From: Propionibacterium ruminifibrarum
GTDB lineage: Bacteria; Actinomycetota; Actinomycetes; Propionibacteriales; Propionibacteriaceae
Reading direction: 5' to 3'
Assembly (NCBI RefSeq): GCF_900289195.1
Contig: NZ_OMOH01000002.1
Span: 61,206 to 93,205 of the forward strand
Length of the DNA: 32,000 bases
Part shown: piece after piece, positions 9,699-20,663 of the stretch
Layout of the letters: each line of letters starts with the position of its first letter
How positions within the stretch are numbered: the first letter of the stretch is position 1
Made by a program: the position numbers and the translations under genes
The notes under the pieces: generated by a model
The model's input: the letters and a program-made list of their open reading frames with translations, nothing else
What the model was told of the DNA's origin: nothing
Database searches by the model: none

Positions 9699-11007
9699 CG
9701 GTGGGCTCCTGTTCGTCGCCGGCCGGTTCAGGCAGCGACGAGACGACGATGGTGTCGATCTGGTGACGTCGGCCGGTGGCTCGTTCCGCGGTGAACTCCA
9801 AACCCTGCCACTGCACGTGCGCCCCCGGGATCGGGACACGGTTGAGGAGCTTGGCCATGAGGCCGCCCGCCGTGTCGACGTCCTCGTCCGCGAGGTCGAG
9901 GCCGAACAGGTCGCCGACCTCGCCGAGGGACATGCGGGCCGAGACGCGCCAGCGGTCGGGTTCGATCCGCTCGGCCAGGTCGGGTTCGGCGTCGTACTCG
10001 TCGGTGATCTCACCGACGATCTCCTCGACGAGGTCCTCGATGGTGGCCAGACCGGCCGAGCCGCCGAACTCGTCGACGACGACGACCATGTGATTGCGGC
10101 TGGCCTGCATCTCGGTGAGCAGTTCGTCGACCGGCTTGGAGTCGGGGCAGAAGGCCACCGGGCGCATGTGCTGGTCGACCGTCTCGGCGCGCTCGGCGTC
10201 CGGGTCGTCGAAGATGCGTTGGGTGATGTCCTTGATGTACATGACGCCGCGGACGTCGTCGAGGTTCTCCCCGATGACGGGGATCCGGCTGAACCCCGAC
10301 CGCAGGGCCAGGCTCATGCCCTGGCGCAGCGTCTTGCCGGACTCGATGAAGACCACGTCGGTGCGGGGCACCATGACCTCGCGGACGAGGGTGTCCCCCA
10401 GCTCGAAGACGGAGTGGATCATCTCGCGTTCGCCGTGTTCGATCGCATCGGCCTGCTCGGCGATGTCGACGAGCTGGCGCAGTTCCTCCTCGGAGGCGAA
10501 GGGCCCGTCGGCGTAACCGCGGCCGGGGGTCACGGCGTTGCCGACGAGGATGAGTGCGCTGGTCAGCCAGCCGAACAGTGCGGTGCACAGGCGCAGCGGA
10601 CCGGAGGCGCGGACGGCGACGGTCTCGGCCCGCTGCCGGCCGAGGGTGCGGGGCATGACGCCCCAGAGGATGAAGGCGATGACGGTGAGGACGAGCACGG
10701 GGACGGCGAACCGCACCCAGGTACCGTCCAGGTGCTCGAAGAGCACCCAGAAGACGACGCAGGCGGTGACCATCTCGCACGCGGTACGCAGGAGCATCGC
10801 CGTGTTGATGGCCGGCGCGGGGTCCGCCTCGATCTCGGCGACACGCGCGGCGCCGCGCACGCCGTCATCGACCATGTGCTGGGCACGGGAGGGGGTGATC
10901 ACCTGCAGCGCGGTCTCCCCGGCGGCGAGCAGACTGGCGAGAATCGTTGCGACGAGCGCGACGGCCAGCGCGATCCATTGGCCGCTGGTCACCTGGCCGC
11001 CCGCCAC
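9688..11007 (-). CDS. CNNM/hemolysin-family membrane protein (DUF21 + CBS pair + CorC_HlyC)
   Basis: N-terminal TM region, then [12 protein letters not shown] and [26 protein letters not shown], which are typical of TlyC/CorC-like proteins. The start is ATG 11007, or GTG 10992 forming a GTGA overlap with the ybeY stop. Confidence 0.88.
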
Positions 11008-11434
11008 CCGGCGATGATCCGGTCGTTGAGACCGAACATGACGGCCTTCTCCTCGGGTTCGGCGTGGTCGTGGCCGAGCAGGTGGAGCAGCCCGTGAATG
11101 AGCAGGTACTCCATCTCCTCCTGGTTGGTGCGGCCATTGCCCGGGGCCTGGGCACCGGTGAAGGCCGGGCAGATGACGATGTCACCGAGCAGGCCCTGCG
11201 GCGGCTCCTCGTCGGCGGCGGGCGCACGCAGTTCATCCATGGGGAAGCTCATGACGTCGGTCGGACCCTCCAGGTCCATGAACCGCTTGTGGTAGACGGC
11301 CATGGTGTCCTCGTCGACCAGCAGGATCGACAGGTCCGACTGGGGGTGAATGCGCAGCTCCTGGAGGGCGTAGCGCGCCAGACGGACGAGCGCCTGGGTG
11401 TCCACCTGTTCACCGGATTCGTTGTTGATGTCGA

Positions 11435-14768: not shown

Positions 14769-16016
14769 TCACCTCGTGCTCGCGGCGGAGCGATAGCGTC
14801 CCAGCCACTCGGCGCGGAAGTCCTCGAAGCTGCCGTCCTCCATGGACCGGCGGATCTGGTCGACGAGACGAACGGTGAAGCGTTCGTTGTGGATCGTGGC
14901 GAGCACCTTGCCGTCGATCTCGCGGGCCTTGAACAGGTGGTGCAGGTAGGCGCGTGTGCAATGCGTGCAGGTGTAGCAGTCACAGCCTTCCTCCAGGGGG
15001 ACGAAGGCACGGCGGTTGGCGGCCGTGGTGACGTTGTAGCGGCCGTCGGCCGTGTAGATCGCCGCGTTCCTGGCCACTCGGCTCGGGTTGACGCAGTCGA
15101 AGGTGTCGGCCCCCGCGGCGCAGGCCGCGAACAGGTCCTCCGGCTCGCTGATGCCGAGCAGGTGCCGGGGCCGGTCCTCGGGCAGTTCGTCGGCGCACCA
15201 GCCGACGATCTCCCCCAGCCTGGCCTTCTCGATGGCGCCGCCGATGCCGTAGCCGTCGAAGGGGCGGTCCCCGTCGGCCGAGCGCATCGCCGACAGGTCG
15301 CGGCAGGCCCTGCGGCGCAGGTCCTCGTACTGGGCCCCCTGGATGACGCCGAAGAGAGCCTGGTAGGGCCGGTGCCGGCGCGAGCCGGTCAGGCGCACGT
15401 GCTCGTCGAGGCAGCGCTGGGCCCAGCGCCGGGTGCGTTCGAGGGCCTCGACCTGGTACTCCCGGGTGTTGAACAGTGTCGTCAGCTCGTCGAAGGCGAA
15501 CATGATGTCGGCACCCAGGCCGTGCTGGACCCGCATGCTCACCTCGGGTGTGAAACGGTGCCTCGAGCCGTCCAGGGGGCTCTTGAAGTTCACGCCGTCC
15601 TCGTCGACGTGGGCCTGCCGTTCGTGGCCCTCGGCGATGACGTCATCGTTCTGCAGCCCGGTGACGTCCATGGCGAGGGTCTTCTTGAACCCCGAGCCGA
15701 GGCTCATCACCTGGAAGCCGCCCGAGTCGGTGAAGGTGGGCCCGGTCCAGCCCATGAAGGAGCCGAGACCGCCTGCCTCGTCGACGATGTCCGCACCCGG
15801 CTGGAGATACAGGTGGAAGGCGTTGGCGAGCACGGCCTGACCGCCGACCGCGGCGACCTGGTCGGGCAGCATGGCCTTGACGGCGGCCTTCGTGCCGACG
15901 ACGACGAACGCCGGGGTCCTGATCGTCCCGTGGGGCGTGGTGATCACGCCCGTCCTGCCCCGCCCGTTGGGCAGTCTCGTGCGCACGGTGAACCCGAAGT
16001 CATCGGAAAAGGCCAT
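14769..16016 (-). CDS. tgt: tRNA-guanine transglycosylase (queuine tRNA-ribosyltransferase)
   Basis: TPAFVVVGT, TDSGGFQV, AFDE and a zinc site CDCYTC...H are present. The ORF-track start 16331 was trimmed to ATG 16016 (MAFSDDFGFTV...). The product is 415 aa. Confidence 0.92.
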   Translation of the reverse strand: MAFSDDFGFTVRTRLPNGRGRTGVITTPHGTIRTPAFVVVGTKAAVKAMLPDQVAAVGGQAVLANAFHLYLQPGADIVDEAGGLGSFMGWTGPTFTDSGGFQVMSLGSGFKKTLAMDVTGLQNDDVIAEGHERQAHVDEDGVNFKSPLDGSRHRFTPEVSMRVQHGLGADIMFAFDELTTLFNTREYQVEALERTRRWAQRCLDEHVRLTGSRRHRPYQALFGVIQGAQYEDLRRRACRDLSAMRSADGDRPFDGYGIGGAIEKARLGEIVGWCADELPEDRPRHLLGISEPEDLFAACAAGADTFDCVNPSRVARNAAIYTADGRYNVTTAANRRAFVPLEEGCDCYTCTHCTRAYLHHLFKAREIDGKVLATIHNERFTVRLVDQIRRSMEDGSFEDFRAEWLGRYRSAASTR

Positions 16017-16230: not shown

Positions 16231-16300
16231 CGTCCACCAGCCAATGCACTGCCGTCGTCCCTCTGCGGACGCCGCGAACTCTGAAAGGGAGCCTGCCCGC

Positions 16301-17833
16301 ATGATGAGAACGTCCACCCCAGCACCTTCACTCACGCGCCGTTCCGTCTTGGCGGCCATGATGGGCACGGCTCTTCTGTCCCCGCTGGTCGCTTGCACCC
16401 GCGGCGGAGGTGACGGCACGAGCGGCGCCCAGAATCCCGGAGACGGCTCTGCGGGCGGTTTGCAGGATCAGCTCGGCGGGCTGGGCGGGAACGCACCCTC
16501 GCTGTCGCCCGAGGAGTACGAGGCCATTGTCGACGGTCTTGCCGAATGGGTGTCCCGCGTCTGGCCTCTCATGGGTTCGGTGTGGCCTGACGCCGACTAC
16601 AACCAGCACCGGATCGTCGCCATGCAGGTGGGTGATGATTTCAAGGCGACGCGGGCCTGGGTGGTCTCCACCGACGGGCACCGAGAGCTCAGGAACGACG
16701 AATACGCCGACATCACCCCGCCCTCCTCCTATGACAAGATCACCTTCGAGGGCTATCCGTCCATCACCTTGAACCTCGGCTCGGCCGTCACCCTCAGCAA
16801 GGGGCAGGGGCAGGATGAGCAGAATGCCTCGTCCGGCACGTCCCCCGCCTCGGCCGGGGCAGCCGGCGATGCGGCCGACCTGACCGACCCGGCCACCTTC
16901 GCCTTCGCCCTCATGACCCATGAGCTGGTGCACTTCTACTACCAGGGCGAGATCAACGTGACCGCCGAGAGCAGCCGCGACACCCCGTACCCGTTCGAGG
17001 TGCGCCCGCGCACCCTGCGCCGGATGCTGCTGCACAGCCTCTACCTGGCGGCGACCGAGCAGAACAAGCAGCAGGATCACCTGGGGCATGCCCGCTACTG
17101 GCTCGACACCTGGAAGAAGGAGGCCGAGCAGGAGGCGCAGGACATCCACCACTACGACATCGCCGAGGGCGTGGCGCGGTACGTCGAGTACATGGCGTTG
17201 TCGATCGAGTCCGACCAGTCCGCCGAGCAGCTGCGCAGTCGCCAGGCGCCTCTGCTCAAGGAGGGCCTGACCGTCGACCTGTCGGTGGACGCCGAGTCCT
17301 ACGCCCTGGGTTTCACCACCGGTGTCCTGCTCGACTCCCGCAAGCCGGGCTGGAAGGACGGCTTCTACGCCGGCGGCACGACCTTGACCGAACTGCTCCT
17401 GGAGGACGTGGCTCCCATTCCCGAAGACGTCGACGAGCAGGTGCAGGCGGAGGTCGACAAGCAGGCCGCGGAGTCCGAGGAGAACACGGGGCCGCAGATC
17501 AAGAAGATCGACTCCGCCGAGGCCGACACCGGCACCGCCTACCTGCGCTTCCTCACATTCGGCGAGATCGCCTACGCCGGCTCGTTCGCGTACAAGGACA
17601 AGGTGGTACTCACCACCACCATCCTGAACGTGAACAACGAGGGTCAGAGTCTTCAAATCTTCGGCACCCCGAGCTTCACCGGCACCGACCGCGAGATCCT
17701 CAACGTCCCGCTGATCGACGCGACCCACCGCTACGACAACGGGGTGCTGACGGTCACCGGCGACGCCATCAACGGGACCGTCAAGGCCGAACGCACCACC
17801 GAGAACGGAAGGGAGGTCTTCATCGTCGAGTAA
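16301..17833 (+). CDS. Tat-signal lipoprotein with an HExxH...EGxAxY motif (putative MA-clan zinc metallopeptidase)
   Basis: ATG 16301 follows GAAAGGGAG. The N-terminus MMRTSTPAPSLTRRSVLAAMMGTALLSPLVAC carries a twin-arginine motif and a lipobox Cys. It also has MTHELVHFYY, and IAEGVARYVEY about 95 aa downstream. Confidence 0.75.
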   Translation: MMRTSTPAPSLTRRSVLAAMMGTALLSPLVACTRGGGDGTSGAQNPGDGSAGGLQDQLGGLGGNAPSLSPEEYEAIVDGLAEWVSRVWPLMGSVWPDADYNQHRIVAMQVGDDFKATRAWVVSTDGHRELRNDEYADITPPSSYDKITFEGYPSITLNLGSAVTLSKGQGQDEQNASSGTSPASAGAAGDAADLTDPATFAFALMTHELVHFYYQGEINVTAESSRDTPYPFEVRPRTLRRMLLHSLYLAATEQNKQQDHLGHARYWLDTWKKEAEQEAQDIHHYDIAEGVARYVEYMALSIESDQSAEQLRSRQAPLLKEGLTVDLSVDAESYALGFTTGVLLDSRKPGWKDGFYAGGTTLTELLLEDVAPIPEDVDEQVQAEVDKQAAESEENTGPQIKKIDSAEADTGTAYLRFLTFGEIAYAGSFAYKDKVVLTTTILNVNNEGQSLQIFGTPSFTGTDREILNVPLIDATHRYDNGVLTVTGDAINGTVKAERTTENGREVFIVE

Positions 17834-17867
17834 TCGGATGTGATGAGGTGGGCTCACACCCATGGTC

Positions 17868-17891
17868 CCGCCGATCACGAGTGGTCGGCGG
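17868..17891 (+). terminator. Hairpin downstream of the lipoprotein gene
   Basis: CCGCCGATCA-CGAG-TGGTCGGCGG forms a 10-bp stem including one G-U pair, 35 nt after the stop. There is no U tract. Confidence 0.35.
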
Positions 17892-18343
17892 GGCCATGCC
17901 GTCCTCGGGAGTGGGAGAACCCGGTTGGCCCGCCCGCGCGTCGACGCGGGCCGCGCATCGCTCCGACGCTGCCTCGTGGCGGCGAGCACTGGGGCATGTC
18001 GGCCAGGATGATGATCCCACTGCCAGTCCGGGGACCTGCACGATGGCGTTCGGCGCGTTCACTGCCTCCTTCGAACCCGGAACGATTCAGCCGGGCTGAC
18101 ATCTTCCGGGGCTCGGGGTGTCATGACTCAAGGTGCATGCTGTACGGCTACCCCGCATGCACCCCTTCACGACACGCACATCCCCTCGCCATCTCGCCGA
18201 TCCCCCGGGCTTTTTCGCCCTCAATCCCCGGGAAAGATTCACTGTGTGCATCGCATTCGGCAACGGATAATTCAGATGCAGATCCACCGTGGAAACGACC
18301 CCAGGGGCACCTGCACTGACGCTGAGCCGAGGACCAGCACGGC

Positions 18344-18853
18344 TCAGTCGCCGTGCTCCTGCTCGCGCTTGCGCCGGTAGTTCTCACAACGACGGGCATT
18401 GCGCTCCTGCCGCTTCAACTCCGCCTCATAACCCGTGCGCAGCCAGTCCGGGATGAACTCATCATCACGCGGATAGCGCTTCAACTCATTCCAGCAATCC
18501 CCAGGGCCGGGGCGTATGTCGCCGGAAGCCTGAGTGAATACAGGCTCGCGCATCCAGTCGCACTCCTGGCGCAGCACCCCGTCAGCGGCAGCCATCCACA
18601 AACGACACCACGTCCACGCACCACGATCAGGCAACGCCTGCGCAGTGCGAAGATCCCCCTGCGGGGAACCCAGCTCCCACGGGATCCTCGACCACTCTTT
18701 GACCCCGTCGCGCATGAGCCAAGCGACATTATCCTGTACGCGTCCAATGCCGTTGACCTCTATGTGAGCGCTGTCCGCACCGGTCTCGTCCAACCACACC
18801 CGAAACTCACGTTCCACGCGCTCCAGTAGTTCGTCTGGGTCTAACTGCCTCAT
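18344..18853 (-). CDS. Hypothetical Trp-rich protein (169 aa), immunity-protein-like
   Basis: GAGGAG lies 8 nt upstream of ATG 18853. The sequence is MRQLDPDELLERVEREF..., with GAWTWCRLWMAAADGVLRQECDW in the second half and a basic K/R/E-rich tail (KRQERNARRCENYRRKREQEHGD). Similarity to YezG/DUF600-type immunity proteins is only an impression. Confidence 0.65.
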   Translation of the reverse strand: MRQLDPDELLERVEREFRVWLDETGADSAHIEVNGIGRVQDNVAWLMRDGVKEWSRIPWELGSPQGDLRTAQALPDRGAWTWCRLWMAAADGVLRQECDWMREPVFTQASGDIRPGPGDCWNELKRYPRDDEFIPDWLRTGYEAELKRQERNARRCENYRRKREQEHGD

Positions 18854-18882
18854 CGCTCACGCTCCTCACTACGACTATATTG

Positions 18883-19146
18883 CTACGGATTGATGTTATT
18901 GAAGTTTCGAGACCGCCCTACGCCGTTCTCATCCACCCACTTGGCTTCGAGCTGAGTTGGTACTCGATCACTCGGGTTGACGTCACTGAGGCGGTTGACG
19001 GAGCCGGCGCTGGCTGGTGGGCCGTCGTACTCGATGCGGATGTCGATGTTCCTGTAGTTGTCAGGGTTAGCGGCGATCTGGTCCTCGAACTTCTCATAGC
19101 TATCCGAGTGGGCGTCGTTCGTTCCACGGTTGAGGTCCTTGTGCAT
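18883..19146 (-). CDS. Small ORF (87 aa from the ATG), orphan toxin C-terminal-module-like
   Basis: There is a strong G/C third-position bias in this frame despite AT-richer DNA. GAGG lies 5 nt upstream of ATG 19146. The frame is open up to 19215, adding FATQPPPQPAPTTAGPEDPNEVP directly after the TAG of the upstream gene. The sequence is N/D-rich with no recognised motif. Confidence 0.5.
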   Translation of the reverse strand: MHKDLNRGTNDAHSDSYEKFEDQIAANPDNYRNIDIRIEYDGPPASAGSVNRLSDVNPSDRVPTQLEAKWVDENGVGRSRNFNNINP

Positions 19147-19215
19147 GGGGACCTCGTTGGGGTCCTCGGGCCCAGCCGTTGTTGGTGCGGGTTGTGGCGG
19201 GGGCTGAGTGGCGAA

Positions 19216-19818
19216 CTACGCCTCCTCCTCTTCTTCCTCGAAGTAGCGGCGTTCGGCCTCGGCCGCACGGTTGGCGGCAGGCGAGTCCACGGTGGCGCTG
19301 AGGACTCGCCCGACGGCGCCGAGTTGAAGTGAGGCTCCGCTCGGCAGGGTCCACGTGGTGGACTCCTGGGGGCCGTTGCGCCCCTGGGAGTGCTTGGTGG
19401 TGCCGGCGCCGTACAAGTCAGTCAGCACTTGGACGTACTGGGTGTATGCCTGGCGCACCAGATCAGGCGCTTCCGGCGGCGTACTGGCCTTAGGAATACG
19501 CGAAGCCAATTCCATGTGAAAGGAATTTGCCTGACCTTTGAGATCTATGAAGTATGCGTCTTTTCCACCCAGATCGTGACCGGTAGTAAACATCATCTCG
19601 TCTGTTGGTGACGGCTGCCAGCCGAGACGGTCACGCAACTCCAGACCCTCCTGGACACTCATAGGCCAATCATGCTCCAACCACAGCCGGATCACCGGCA
19701 CACCCACCTCGGGCGGAACCACCCGAAAGGTAGTGCCGCCCGGAAGTCCAAGCTCGTATGAAATACCGTCATTCTCCTGCTTGTCATCACTCACACGATC
19801 ACTCCAGACCACTAACAT
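19216..19818 (-). CDS. Hypothetical protein, paralog B of a tandem pair (about 200 aa)
   Basis: It shares RVVPPEVGVPVIR.WLEHDWPM and STTWTLP..AS.Q.G..G.VLS...DSP.AN with the upstream gene and has the acidic tail EEEEEEA. The start is uncertain: ATG 19818 abuts AGGAGG, and GTG 19812 has better spacing. Confidence 0.72.
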   Translation of the reverse strand: MLVVWSDRVSDDKQENDGISYELGLPGGTTFRVVPPEVGVPVIRLWLEHDWPMSVQEGLELRDRLGWQPSPTDEMMFTTGHDLGGKDAYFIDLKGQANSFHMELASRIPKASTPPEAPDLVRQAYTQYVQVLTDLYGAGTTKHSQGRNGPQESTTWTLPSGASLQLGAVGRVLSATVDSPAANRAAEAERRYFEEEEEEA

Positions 19819-19848
19819 CCTCCTACGAGACCGGATCGCCAGGAGCAC

Positions 19849-20442
19849 CTACTCGTCCCCGTCCTCTTCTGCAGCCTCCCACTCCAGCAACTCCGCCTCA
19901 GCCGCAGCCGCATAATTCGCATCAGGAGAATCGATGTCGCAGCTCAGCACACTTCCGATCGTACCGACTTGAACTGATGCGTGATTCGGTAGTGTCCAAG
20001 TGGTCGAATCTACATAACCACTCCGGGTTTTACTTCGCGACACCTCACCTTCACCGTACAAGCCGGACAACCTGCTGGTGTAAGCAACGTATGCCGCATG
20101 CGTCAGCGGTGTGGTGTATACATCAAGCTCTATTGGCGCATACGACGCCAAGCTGATACGAAATGAGTTCACTCTATTCTTGATGATGGTGATTGACGCG
20201 TCCTTGGGCATACCCGAGCCGAGGTTGGTGGTGACCAGTGTTTCCTTCCTCGGCGAAGGCGTCCAGCCGAGTTCGTCGCGCAGCGCAAGCGCCTGCTGGG
20301 CGGTCATGGGCCAGTCGTGTTCAAGCCACTTGCGGATGACGGGTACCCCGACCTCTGGTGGGACCACCCGGTAGACGGTGCCATCGGGAAGCTCGCGCTC
20401 GTAGGTGGGGTCCGTGTGTTGGCTCCTGGTGCCGTCGGTCAT
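19849..20442 (-). CDS. Hypothetical protein, paralog A of a tandem pair (197 aa)
   Basis: ATG 20442 is preceded by AGGAG at a 6-nt spacing. It has the same conserved N- and C-terminal blocks as paralog B and the acidic tail EAAEEDGDE. Confidence 0.78.
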   Translation of the reverse strand: MTDGTRSQHTDPTYERELPDGTVYRVVPPEVGVPVIRKWLEHDWPMTAQQALALRDELGWTPSPRKETLVTTNLGSGMPKDASITIIKNRVNSFRISLASYAPIELDVYTTPLTHAAYVAYTSRLSGLYGEGEVSRSKTRSGYVDSTTWTLPNHASVQVGTIGSVLSCDIDSPDANYAAAAEAELLEWEAAEEDGDE

Positions 20443-20663
20443 CGCGTGCTCCTGGCCGGTGCCCGGTCGTTGGCCTGTTCACGTACATGGTAGGCGAGGT
20501 GTGTGACATCAATCTGCGCGCCGTGGGGAGTCGTCGTTCGCTCTACGGCGTGGGGCTGCGGACTCTGGGCGCGGATCTCACCGACTCTCATCACGTCCCT
20601 GAAGCATCGGCCGCGGACCCCAACCGTGGGTCCTGGGGAGTCAACACCGCTGCTCATCCAAGC

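Follow-up and report, generated by a model that had tools for sequence, protein, structure and literature searches.

Two tandem DUF6301 genes in a Propionibacterium window

We analysed a 32,000-nucleotide (nt) stretch of Propionibacterium ruminifibrarum DNA, referred to here as the window, whose positions serve as coordinates throughout. It carries two adjacent genes, A and B, both on the minus strand with gene B directly after gene A, which a first-pass annotation had described as tandem diverged paralogs. Both products belong to the Pfam family DUF6301 (PF19818), each aligning with model positions 1–136 of 137 in hmmscan at a score above the gathering cutoff of 27.2 bits (Table 1). Here, we propose that they are immunity proteins against toxins of a type VII secretion system (T7SS) of the ESX kind. 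The gene A product is 100% identical to PROPJV5_0482 of P. ruminifibrarum. For gene B, the maximal open reading frame (ORF) spans 19216–19848 on the minus strand (210 amino acids, aa), and the NCBI annotation (P0008) uses an alternative GTG start at 19794, giving 192 aa. The likely start is the GTG at 19812, since an AGGAGG lies at 19824–19819, six nt before it.

The two proteins share 52% identity over 162 residues (BLASTP, E = 3e-44), a similarity far beyond chance. The N-terminal block RVVPPEVGVPVIR(K/L)WLEHDWPM, the C-terminal block STTWTLP..AS.Q.G..G.VLS...DSP.AN and an acidic C-terminal tail are found in both, just as the annotation had listed them, and the 13-codon strings that it had quoted from the N-terminal block of the two genes are exact: nine of the 13 codons differ, every change being synonymous. 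Over the whole pair, identity by codon position is 0.65, 0.59 and 0.36, and the proportion of synonymous differences (pS) is ~0.79, i.e. synonymous sites are saturated; the longest exact DNA word common to the two genes is 9 nt. The saturated third positions, together with this short maximal word, argue that the N-terminal block has been kept by selection at the protein level and not by gene conversion, in line with the earlier claim that it is conserved at the protein level only. The proportion of nonsynonymous differences (pN) is 0.13 in the N-terminal block and reaches 0.56 in the centre.

DUF6301 is a small, Actinomycetales-centred family, for which a literature search returned zero papers and no reported function. 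When 1.84 billion representative proteins were searched exhaustively with a profile, only 108 clusters of homologs were recovered at E ≤ 1e-3, and all 48 diverse members compared with Pfam matched DUF6301 alone. The annotation had pointed to immunity families such as SUKH and Imm, a suggestion that was not borne out: none of the 48 proteins matched a SUKH/SMI1-KNR4 or Pfam Imm model even at E ≤ 10. This lack of a Pfam cross-match, together with the lack of a significant Foldseek neighbour in the PDB, places DUF6301 outside SUKH and outside every Pfam Imm family. An assignment of A and B to EsaG/DUF600 was likewise rejected, since Pfam gave no match beyond DUF6301 and the likeness lies only in gene organisation. 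Nor did the two genes prove to belong to a well-characterised enzyme or regulator family.

An AlphaFold (AF2) model of DUF6301 built from 48 sequences (pLDDT 93, pTM 0.86) predicts an alpha+beta protein that begins with a pair of short strands, followed by two helices and three strands; a long helix then leads to four strands, and a long acidic helix forms the C-terminus. At E ≤ 1e-3, Foldseek found no PDB neighbour of this model, the best matches being CyanoP/PsbP (E 0.01, TM score 0.28–0.31) and BLIP (E 0.027), and no significant neighbour among viral models (BFVD). An earlier AF2 model from 16 sequences (pLDDT 71) had yielded no useful Foldseek match, and sequence and profile searches of the PDB with DUF6301 returned noise only. 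Read by eye rather than with a predictor, the translations show no N-terminal signal peptide or long hydrophobic stretch, which would fit a cytoplasmic target.

Gene A is closest to genes of Actinomyces succiniciruminis (87% identity), A. ruminicola (74–75%) and A. qiguomingii (67%), the first of which lies directly after the gene of a 977-aa ESX-linked toxin, and gene B is 79–88% identical to genes behind a toxin variant found at four further loci (L011, L012, L013 and L023). In the alignment, the close relatives split into an A-type and a B-type, with the window's A in the former and its B in the latter. A natural fusion of both types in one polypeptide of 384 aa occurs in A. ruminicola (P0017). 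A 297-aa protein from a Joint Genome Institute (JGI) metagenome (P0016) matches the window's B over about the first 140 residues, after which the frame shifts, pointing to a near-identical copy of the island described below, or a sequencing error of one, in that metagenome.

Homologous loci, their toxins and the evolution of A and B

The genomic context of DUF6301 homologs was sampled at 23 loci, corresponding to 17 distinct places, mostly in Actinomyces, with reference proteins mapped by tblastn. At 13 of the 17 distinct loci, the first DUF6301 gene starts 9–232 nt past the stop of a large ORF on the same strand that ends in a common C-terminal domain, here called Tox_C. The linkage to secretion-associated toxin genes raised by the annotation was thus found, as the homologs of A and B lie directly 3' of ESX/T7SS-linked polymorphic toxins. 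The large ORFs were called at 418 to ~1000 aa, with longer open frames in L008 and L009, and hold no significant Pfam domain. In A. succiniciruminis and A. ruminicola, the toxin ORF closes a complete ESX cluster. Two WXG100 genes and genes for EccD, EccB, a subtilase (MycP-like), YbaB and an EspC-like protein lie directly upstream in L003, L004 and L007, partial ESX sets precede the toxin in L011, L020 and L023, and an FtsK/EccC-type ATPase precedes it in L018. The linkage of the toxin to WXG100, EccB, EccD, MycP-like subtilase and EspC-like genes is clear from these gene orders, and its secretion is predicted. NCBIfam gave no match for the toxins, the immunity genes or their neighbours.

The large toxin is built of three parts, namely a conserved N-terminal region of ~270 aa, a long low-complexity linker and Tox_C (~230 aa). 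Of two proteins, one gave a WXG100_2/PPE-like match in the N-terminal region (E 2e-4), which at 21.8 bits falls short of the Pfam cutoff of 27 bits. The linker (L003 7774–9183 and its L002 equivalent) spans ~470 aa of low complexity, and is rich in S, T, G, D and H. A SYHGIDPIHGD motif recurs in it and is shared across species; the linker could serve in processing or span the cell wall. Across 11 Tox_C sequences, 29–73% identical to the reference row, the residues IGExGG, D105, E120-x-K122-G, Q143-G and Y148 (P0024 numbering) are invariant, the alignment also contains a D.R motif, and the E ... D ... (D/E)xK catalytic pattern of PD-(D/E)xK enzymes is present. Zhang et al. (2012, PMC3482391) list this E/D/ExK/Q/Y pattern for restriction-endonuclease-fold toxins such as Tox-REase-6, which they tie to T7SS (WXG) and Actinobacteria. 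Among 13 Tox_C sequences, no Pfam Tox-REase match was found at E ≤ 10, the sole match coming from an unrelated orphan module of L016. Neither Pfam nor NCBIfam has a model that matches Tox_C, sequence and profile searches of the PDB with it gave only noise, and its hhalign comparison with the Tox-REase-5 protein of the L016 module gave a probability of 0.2, i.e. nothing. Since no model recognises Tox_C, its place among the PD-(D/E)xK nucleases follows from motifs and is not a demonstrated membership; with this qualification, Tox_C is probably such a nuclease.

Over 14 loci, Tox_C and the DUF6301 protein next to it correlate in pairwise identity (Mantel r 0.97, permutation p 2e-4), and the pairing follows toxin type, not species. 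A-type immunity genes lie behind the toxin type of L003, L007 and L002, and B-type genes behind that of L011, L012, L013 and L023. The two toxin types are ~50% identical to each other, and both occur within A. qiguomingii: its locus 1 and locus 2 are 57% identical in the toxin and 46% in the immunity protein, and its locus 2 and that of A. glycerinitolerans 86% and 84%, respectively. Because linkage alone also gives a correlation, the co-divergence is supportive and not decisive. Gene A is predicted to encode the immunity protein for the C-terminal domain of the L003-type toxin, and gene B that for the L011-type toxin subtype.

DUF6301 genes also occur in strings. In Actinomyces sp. oral taxon 448, eight and seven tandem copies are found, each array behind one toxin; the arrays (L008 9998–15155 and L009 9965–14536) are two separate toxin loci in one genome. 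Three copies follow one toxin in L016, and three likewise in L020, from a Propionibacteriaceae metagenome-assembled genome (MAG). Arrays of up to eight copies, the toxin linkage and the co-divergence with the toxin C-terminus support the reading of A and B as diversifying immunity proteins that the annotation had put forward. Other copies stand without a toxin. Actinobaculum sp. 313 has a solitary intact copy among housekeeping genes (L021 8001–8594), A. ruminis a frameshifted B-type copy (L014 10001–10541) and A. qiguomingii an extra B-type copy. The intact solitary gene and the frameshifted one indicate that orphan DUF6301 copies are recurrent and that some are decaying.

Orphan toxin modules lie downstream of DUF6301 genes in homologous loci. 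The L003 module encodes a 362-aa Endonuclea_NS_2 (PF13930) protein whose first 61 aa match part of the main toxin at 95% identity; this shared segment is the usual recombination handle of polymorphic toxin loci. In L016, a metagenomic locus, orphan modules at 9926–11056 and 15090–15947 carry Tox-REase-5 (26.5 bits, just over the cutoff) and Tox-REase-2, and are interleaved with DUF6301 genes, unannotated small genes and an IS3-type transposase.

Saturation of dS precludes a profile of nonsynonymous to synonymous rates (dN/dS, omega) for A against B, and ortholog comparisons with unsaturated dS were used in its place. Overall omega was 0.11–0.28. By region, it was 0–0.1 in the N-terminal block and 0.3–0.86 in the centre, and no sliding window exceeded 1. 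The N-terminal block is under strong purifying selection, as the annotation had argued, and the sliding-window analysis that it had suggested, here made on orthologs, showed dN/dS not to be uniform along the proteins. Its claim of rapid central change stands in so far as dN is strongly non-uniform, as in the rise of pN between the two genes; it does not stand as positive selection, since omega reaches ~0.86 at most and dS jumps too. For the A-type genes, a comparison of A. succiniciruminis with A. ruminicola gives a dS of ~0.1 over codons 1–90 and > 1 over codons 91–165. Since dS jumps with dN at about codon 90, the variable centre looks like a recombination mosaic and not like the product of fast point mutation. 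Variant segments are shuffled among the eight paralogs of the L008 array, whose 5' block has a third-position identity of 0.93–0.97; the seven-copy array of L009 likewise combines shuffled segments with a 5' block kept in the DNA. Such shuffled segments beside a conserved block have been reported for esaG (Garrett et al. 2022, PMC9484751). A and B cannot recombine with each other, as their DNA-level divergence is too great. Their pairing is old, given the fusion in A. ruminicola and the A-B tandem in A. qiguomingii. The old duplication proposed by the annotation survives as a relationship of old, diverged paralogs with saturated sites, but not as a local event, as A and B are two old subtypes with closer orthologs in Actinomyces (up to 87% for A and 88% for B).

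The island in the window

DNA homology of the window to the Actinomyces loci is limited to 2.2 kb at 18344–20579 (blastn; Table 1). At one end lies a stub that corresponds to the final 12 codons (..EIRAQ..PTP) of the Actinomyces toxin and its stop, with a 2-nt deletion. In the base-level alignment, its homology begins abruptly at GAGATCCG, and the TAG at 20545–20543 is conserved; the stub marks the left breakpoint of the island. A tblastn search of the window with the full toxins found no protein-level remnant, the stub being seen by blastn alone. The block of stub, A and B is collinear with A. qiguomingii (74% identity over a 1377-column alignment); A alone is nearest to A. succiniciruminis (85% at the nt level), and B alone to A. 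glycerinitolerans (87%).

Table 1. Features of the island and its border, in window coordinates
Feature	Position	Strand	Description
Toxin 3' stub	20543-20579	minus	blastn homology to L003/L007/L002; its end at 20579 corresponds to L003 9859
Toxin-immunity intergenic region and gene A ribosome-binding site	20443-20542	minus	few mismatches to L003 9898-10000, including CAGGAG..ATG
Gene A, DUF6301, A-type	19849-20442	minus	197 aa; Pfam PF19818, 86.2 bits
Gene B, DUF6301, B-type	19216-19812	minus	198 aa from GTG 19812; Pfam PF19818, 95.2 bits
Second-toxin remnant, apparently dead	18883-19215	minus	70% identical to residues 268-361 of the L003 362-aa PF13930 protein
Third putative immunity gene	18344-18853	minus	169 aa, no family; in L003 and L007, the gene lying directly 3' of the Endonuclea_NS_2 module is 60-74% identical
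Interval between island and upstream gene	17834-18343		510 bp; no convincing ORF, tRNA gene, Rfam match or Actinomyces-locus homology
Gene bordering the island	16244-17833	plus	529 aa; hydrophobic N-terminus ending in a lipoprotein-like cysteine, HELVH (HExxH) motif; no Pfam/NCBIfam match

The TAG stop of gene B (19216–19218) is GAG in the A. glycerinitolerans ortholog (L011), so that the B tail is truncated. The 13 codons past this stop (19173–19215) still encode a recognisable native tail, FATQPPPQPAPTT, after which the same frame continues into what remains of a second toxin. This remnant is the C-terminal ~94 aa of an Endonuclea_NS_2 orphan module, and the B cassette is joined to Endonuclea_NS_2 codons at about 19173–19179. 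Without the nonsense change, B would be a fusion of an immunity protein with a toxin fragment. The homology of the remnant to L003 (87% identity in DNA) starts at 19173 and begins past the DGGH motif, which the remnant lacks. We take this motif to hold the catalytic histidine of the endonuclease family, and the remnant appears to be catalytically dead; by itself, it gave no Pfam match.

The third gene of the island likewise had no Pfam or NCBIfam match. Its Actinomyces relatives always follow the Endonuclea_NS_2 orphan module, and it probably represents a further uncatalogued immunity family, the partner of that module. Two diverged copies of a relative are present in A. gerencseriae (L010). 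The Actinomyces DNA homology stops exactly at 18344, which marks the right end of the island. As a whole, the island is best described from these alignments as a mosaic of three immunity cassettes with two toxin stubs.

The GC content of the window, 0.65–0.73, dips to ~0.60 at 18–20.4 kb; the cassettes have values of 0.58–0.62 against 0.67–0.70 in the flanks, and they are GC-poor in Actinomyces as well. Housekeeping genes, including tgt, era, phoH, dnaJ, hrcA, a hemN-like gene and lepA, make up the flanks. No toxin gene (tblastn) and no ESX gene lies within the 32-kb window, and A and B are orphan immunity genes there, the toxin itself being missing. At the island borders, we found no tRNA gene, Rfam match, integrase or mobile-element gene, meaningful flanking repeat, or promoter/terminator consensus. 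The 529-aa protein encoded next to the island is possibly a secreted zinc peptidase of no established class. The orders differ, P. ruminifibrarum being placed in Propionibacteriales and Actinomyces in Actinomycetales, and several of the Propionibacterium and Actinomyces species concerned are rumen isolates. Since the Actinomyces homology is confined to this lower-GC island, the orders differ and the rumen is a common habitat, horizontal acquisition is the simplest explanation of the island.

Interpretation and comparison with known systems

We consider A and B to be cytoplasmic DUF6301 immunity proteins and the window to hold a horizontally acquired orphan immunity island against the type VII toxins of neighbours, a reading to which we assign a probability of roughly 0.77. 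In the proposed mechanism, a large ESX (type VII) substrate would comprise a WXG100/PPE-like helical secretion domain, a disordered linker and the C-terminal Tox_C, and the DUF6301 protein encoded immediately downstream would most likely bind and block Tox_C in the producer and its kin, by stoichiometric binding in the cytoplasm. The N-terminal block and the C-terminal W...SP block may provide a common scaffold, or a contact with the conserved catalytic face of the toxin, and the variable residues ~85–145 (beta-hairpin, long helix, strand) would set subtype specificity, with the A-type and B-type proteins cognate to the two toxin subtypes. In the window, the toxin has been lost save for its last-12-codon sequence, leaving the 2.2-kb mosaic, which would derive from rumen Actinomyces-like donors. 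The orphan island may thus shield P. ruminifibrarum in the rumen from the type VII toxins of neighbouring Actinomyces.

Family membership, synteny, the toxin stubs, co-divergence, the mosaic structure and purifying selection are shown by the present data; that DUF6301 binds and neutralises the toxin, that Tox_C acts as a nuclease and that the island protects its host in the rumen are predictions. Several points weigh against this interpretation. The functions of DUF6301 and Tox_C are predicted ones. The nuclease assignment of Tox_C rests on a motif pattern, with no Pfam, NCBIfam or PDB sequence match, and the WXG100-like match at the toxin N-terminus stays below the Pfam cutoff (21.8 vs 27 bits). 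Co-divergence of toxin and immunity gene is expected for any two tightly linked genes, and it fits cognate pairing without proving it. The locus sample is small (17 distinct places) and mainly from Actinomyces. Finally, A and B may not be orphans genome-wide, as the absence of a toxin is known for the 32-kb window.

Three other explanations are less likely than orphan immunity. According to the first, A and B confer self-immunity to a toxin encoded elsewhere in the P. ruminifibrarum genome and are not an acquired defence. A Propionibacteriaceae MAG (L020) does possess a full locus of a toxin followed by three DUF6301 genes, and our toxin data cover the window, a word-indexed Tox_C search having given two partial proteins and missed the query's own parent. 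However, the local toxin is cut down to a 12-codon sequence with a frame-breaking deletion, the second toxin is truncated, no ESX gene is present within 32 kb, and A and B have their closest relatives in Actinomyces, all of which makes self-immunity improbable.

A second explanation, still less probable, takes DUF6301 to be a secretion adaptor or chaperone of the ESX toxin (like the Lap/Tap targeting factors, EsaE or EspG) and not an immunity protein. It was one of the options named in the first-pass annotation and would account for the tight linkage and co-divergence with an ESX substrate. That co-divergence, however, is with the C-terminal toxin domain and not with the N-terminal secretion domain, and a chaperone role would hardly account for seven to eight diverged copies behind a single toxin. 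Known targeting factors are small proteins that form a helical hairpin, with their genes upstream of that of the effector, whereas DUF6301 is a ~190-aa alpha+beta protein encoded downstream. In addition, DUF6301 is kept without the toxin in the window, in L021 and in the extra B-type copy of A. qiguomingii. The third explanation, that A and B stem from a recent tandem duplication in this genome and that their centres then diversified under positive selection, would suit two adjacent genes on the same strand with strongly diverged centres, but can be set aside as very unlikely, being contradicted by the synonymous saturation (pS 0.79) and the 9-nt longest common word, by the much closer orthologs of each gene in other species, by the collinear stub-A-B block of A. 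qiguomingii and the A-B fusion in A. ruminicola, and by the lack of any sliding window with omega > 1.

Beyond the orphan immunity reading itself, we tentatively suggest, at somewhat less than even odds, that DUF6301 is a structurally new immunity fold directed against an uncatalogued restriction-endonuclease-like toxin domain of Actinomycetaceae ESX systems, and that, with the island, an "acquired interbacterial defence" cassette against type VII toxins has passed from one order to another. To our knowledge, no such acquired-defence island against type VII toxins is known for Actinomycetota. If this suggestion is true, ESX-mediated warfare would shape rumen and oral actinobacterial communities. 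The immunity reading would by itself supply a function for DUF6301 and point to its partner, a toxin domain that is invisible to Pfam and NCBIfam. Antibacterial toxins of actinobacterial ESX systems (T7SSa) are only now emerging. The first mycobacterial one was published in 2026 (PMC13444075), and according to a preprint of the same year (PMC13622651), no Esx effector of Actinomycetaceae had been experimentally identified before. A ready set of toxin–immunity pairs is useful in this situation, and the loci described here include two subtypes that differ in specificity, poly-immunity arrays that occur naturally and, in a different order, an island of orphan genes. With this material, ESX competition in the rumen and mouth, immunity specificity (scaffold against variable centre) and the horizontal spread of immunity genes could be addressed.

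Among known systems, the EsaD nuclease toxin and the arrays of its immunity protein EsaG (DUF600) belong to the T7SSb of Staphylococcus aureus (Cao et al. 2016; Garrett et al. 2022, PMC9484751). As there, a toxin of type VII secretion, here predicted to be both a substrate and a nuclease, is followed by its immunity gene, non-identical immunity paralogs stand in tandem strings, copies are kept without a toxin, and conserved blocks flank variable segments in a recombination mosaic, seen here in the L008 array. The present loci differ in that DUF6301 has no Pfam cross-match and the toxin domain is Tox_C, and in that they are of the actinobacterial ESX/T7SSa type with EccB, EccD and a MycP-like subtilase. 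Moreover, the block shared by the window's A and B is conserved in the protein only (9-nt word), leaving no recombination substrate between them.

The polymorphic toxins surveyed by Zhang et al. (2012, PMC3482391) resemble these loci in joining a WXG-type trafficking domain through a linker to a variable toxin at the C-terminus, with the immunity gene downstream, and in their orphan cassettes with a recombination handle, comparable to the 61 aa at 95% identity in the L003 module. The conserved E, D, ExK, Q and Y of Tox_C correspond to the list given for Tox-REase-6, and polyimmunity loci with an excess of immunity genes were noted in oral Actinomyces in the same survey. Unlike those toxins, Tox_C has no Pfam Tox-REase match, and the immunity families of restriction-endonuclease (REase) toxins, i.e. 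Imm49, Imm-PA2201, Imm23, Imm54, HEAT and SUKH, matched 0 of 48 DUF6301 proteins.

Within Actinomycetota, EatA/EatI and further predicted T7SSa toxins (Benedict et al. 2026, PMC13444075) and AesA/AesB of Schaalia (Wang et al. 2026 preprint, PMC13622651) are comparable cases. In the passages available from these two sources, neither DUF6301 nor the present toxin domain is mentioned. EatA and AesB are ESX substrates with a helical N-terminal domain, a C-terminal effector and downstream immunity genes, as predicted here for the DUF6301-linked toxin, and AesB shares with that toxin a long disordered linker. EatA differs in being a cell-wall arabinanase with a secreted inhibitor, and AesB in having no folded toxin domain.

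Gut Bacteroidales reportedly carry acquired interbacterial defence (orphan immunity) clusters against type VI secretion (T6SS) toxins (Ross et al. 2019). The island in P. ruminifibrarum is similar in that toxin-less immunity genes lie in a small, horizontally acquired island and that recipient and producers share a habitat. It differs in that the toxins are those of ESX/T7SS in Actinomycetota, the island has three genes, no mobile element was found and protection is predicted. In sum, the loci would extend a well-known kind of system by an immunity family and a toxin domain that are both new; they bring no new principle, and their organisation mirrors that of EsaD/EsaG and other polymorphic toxins.

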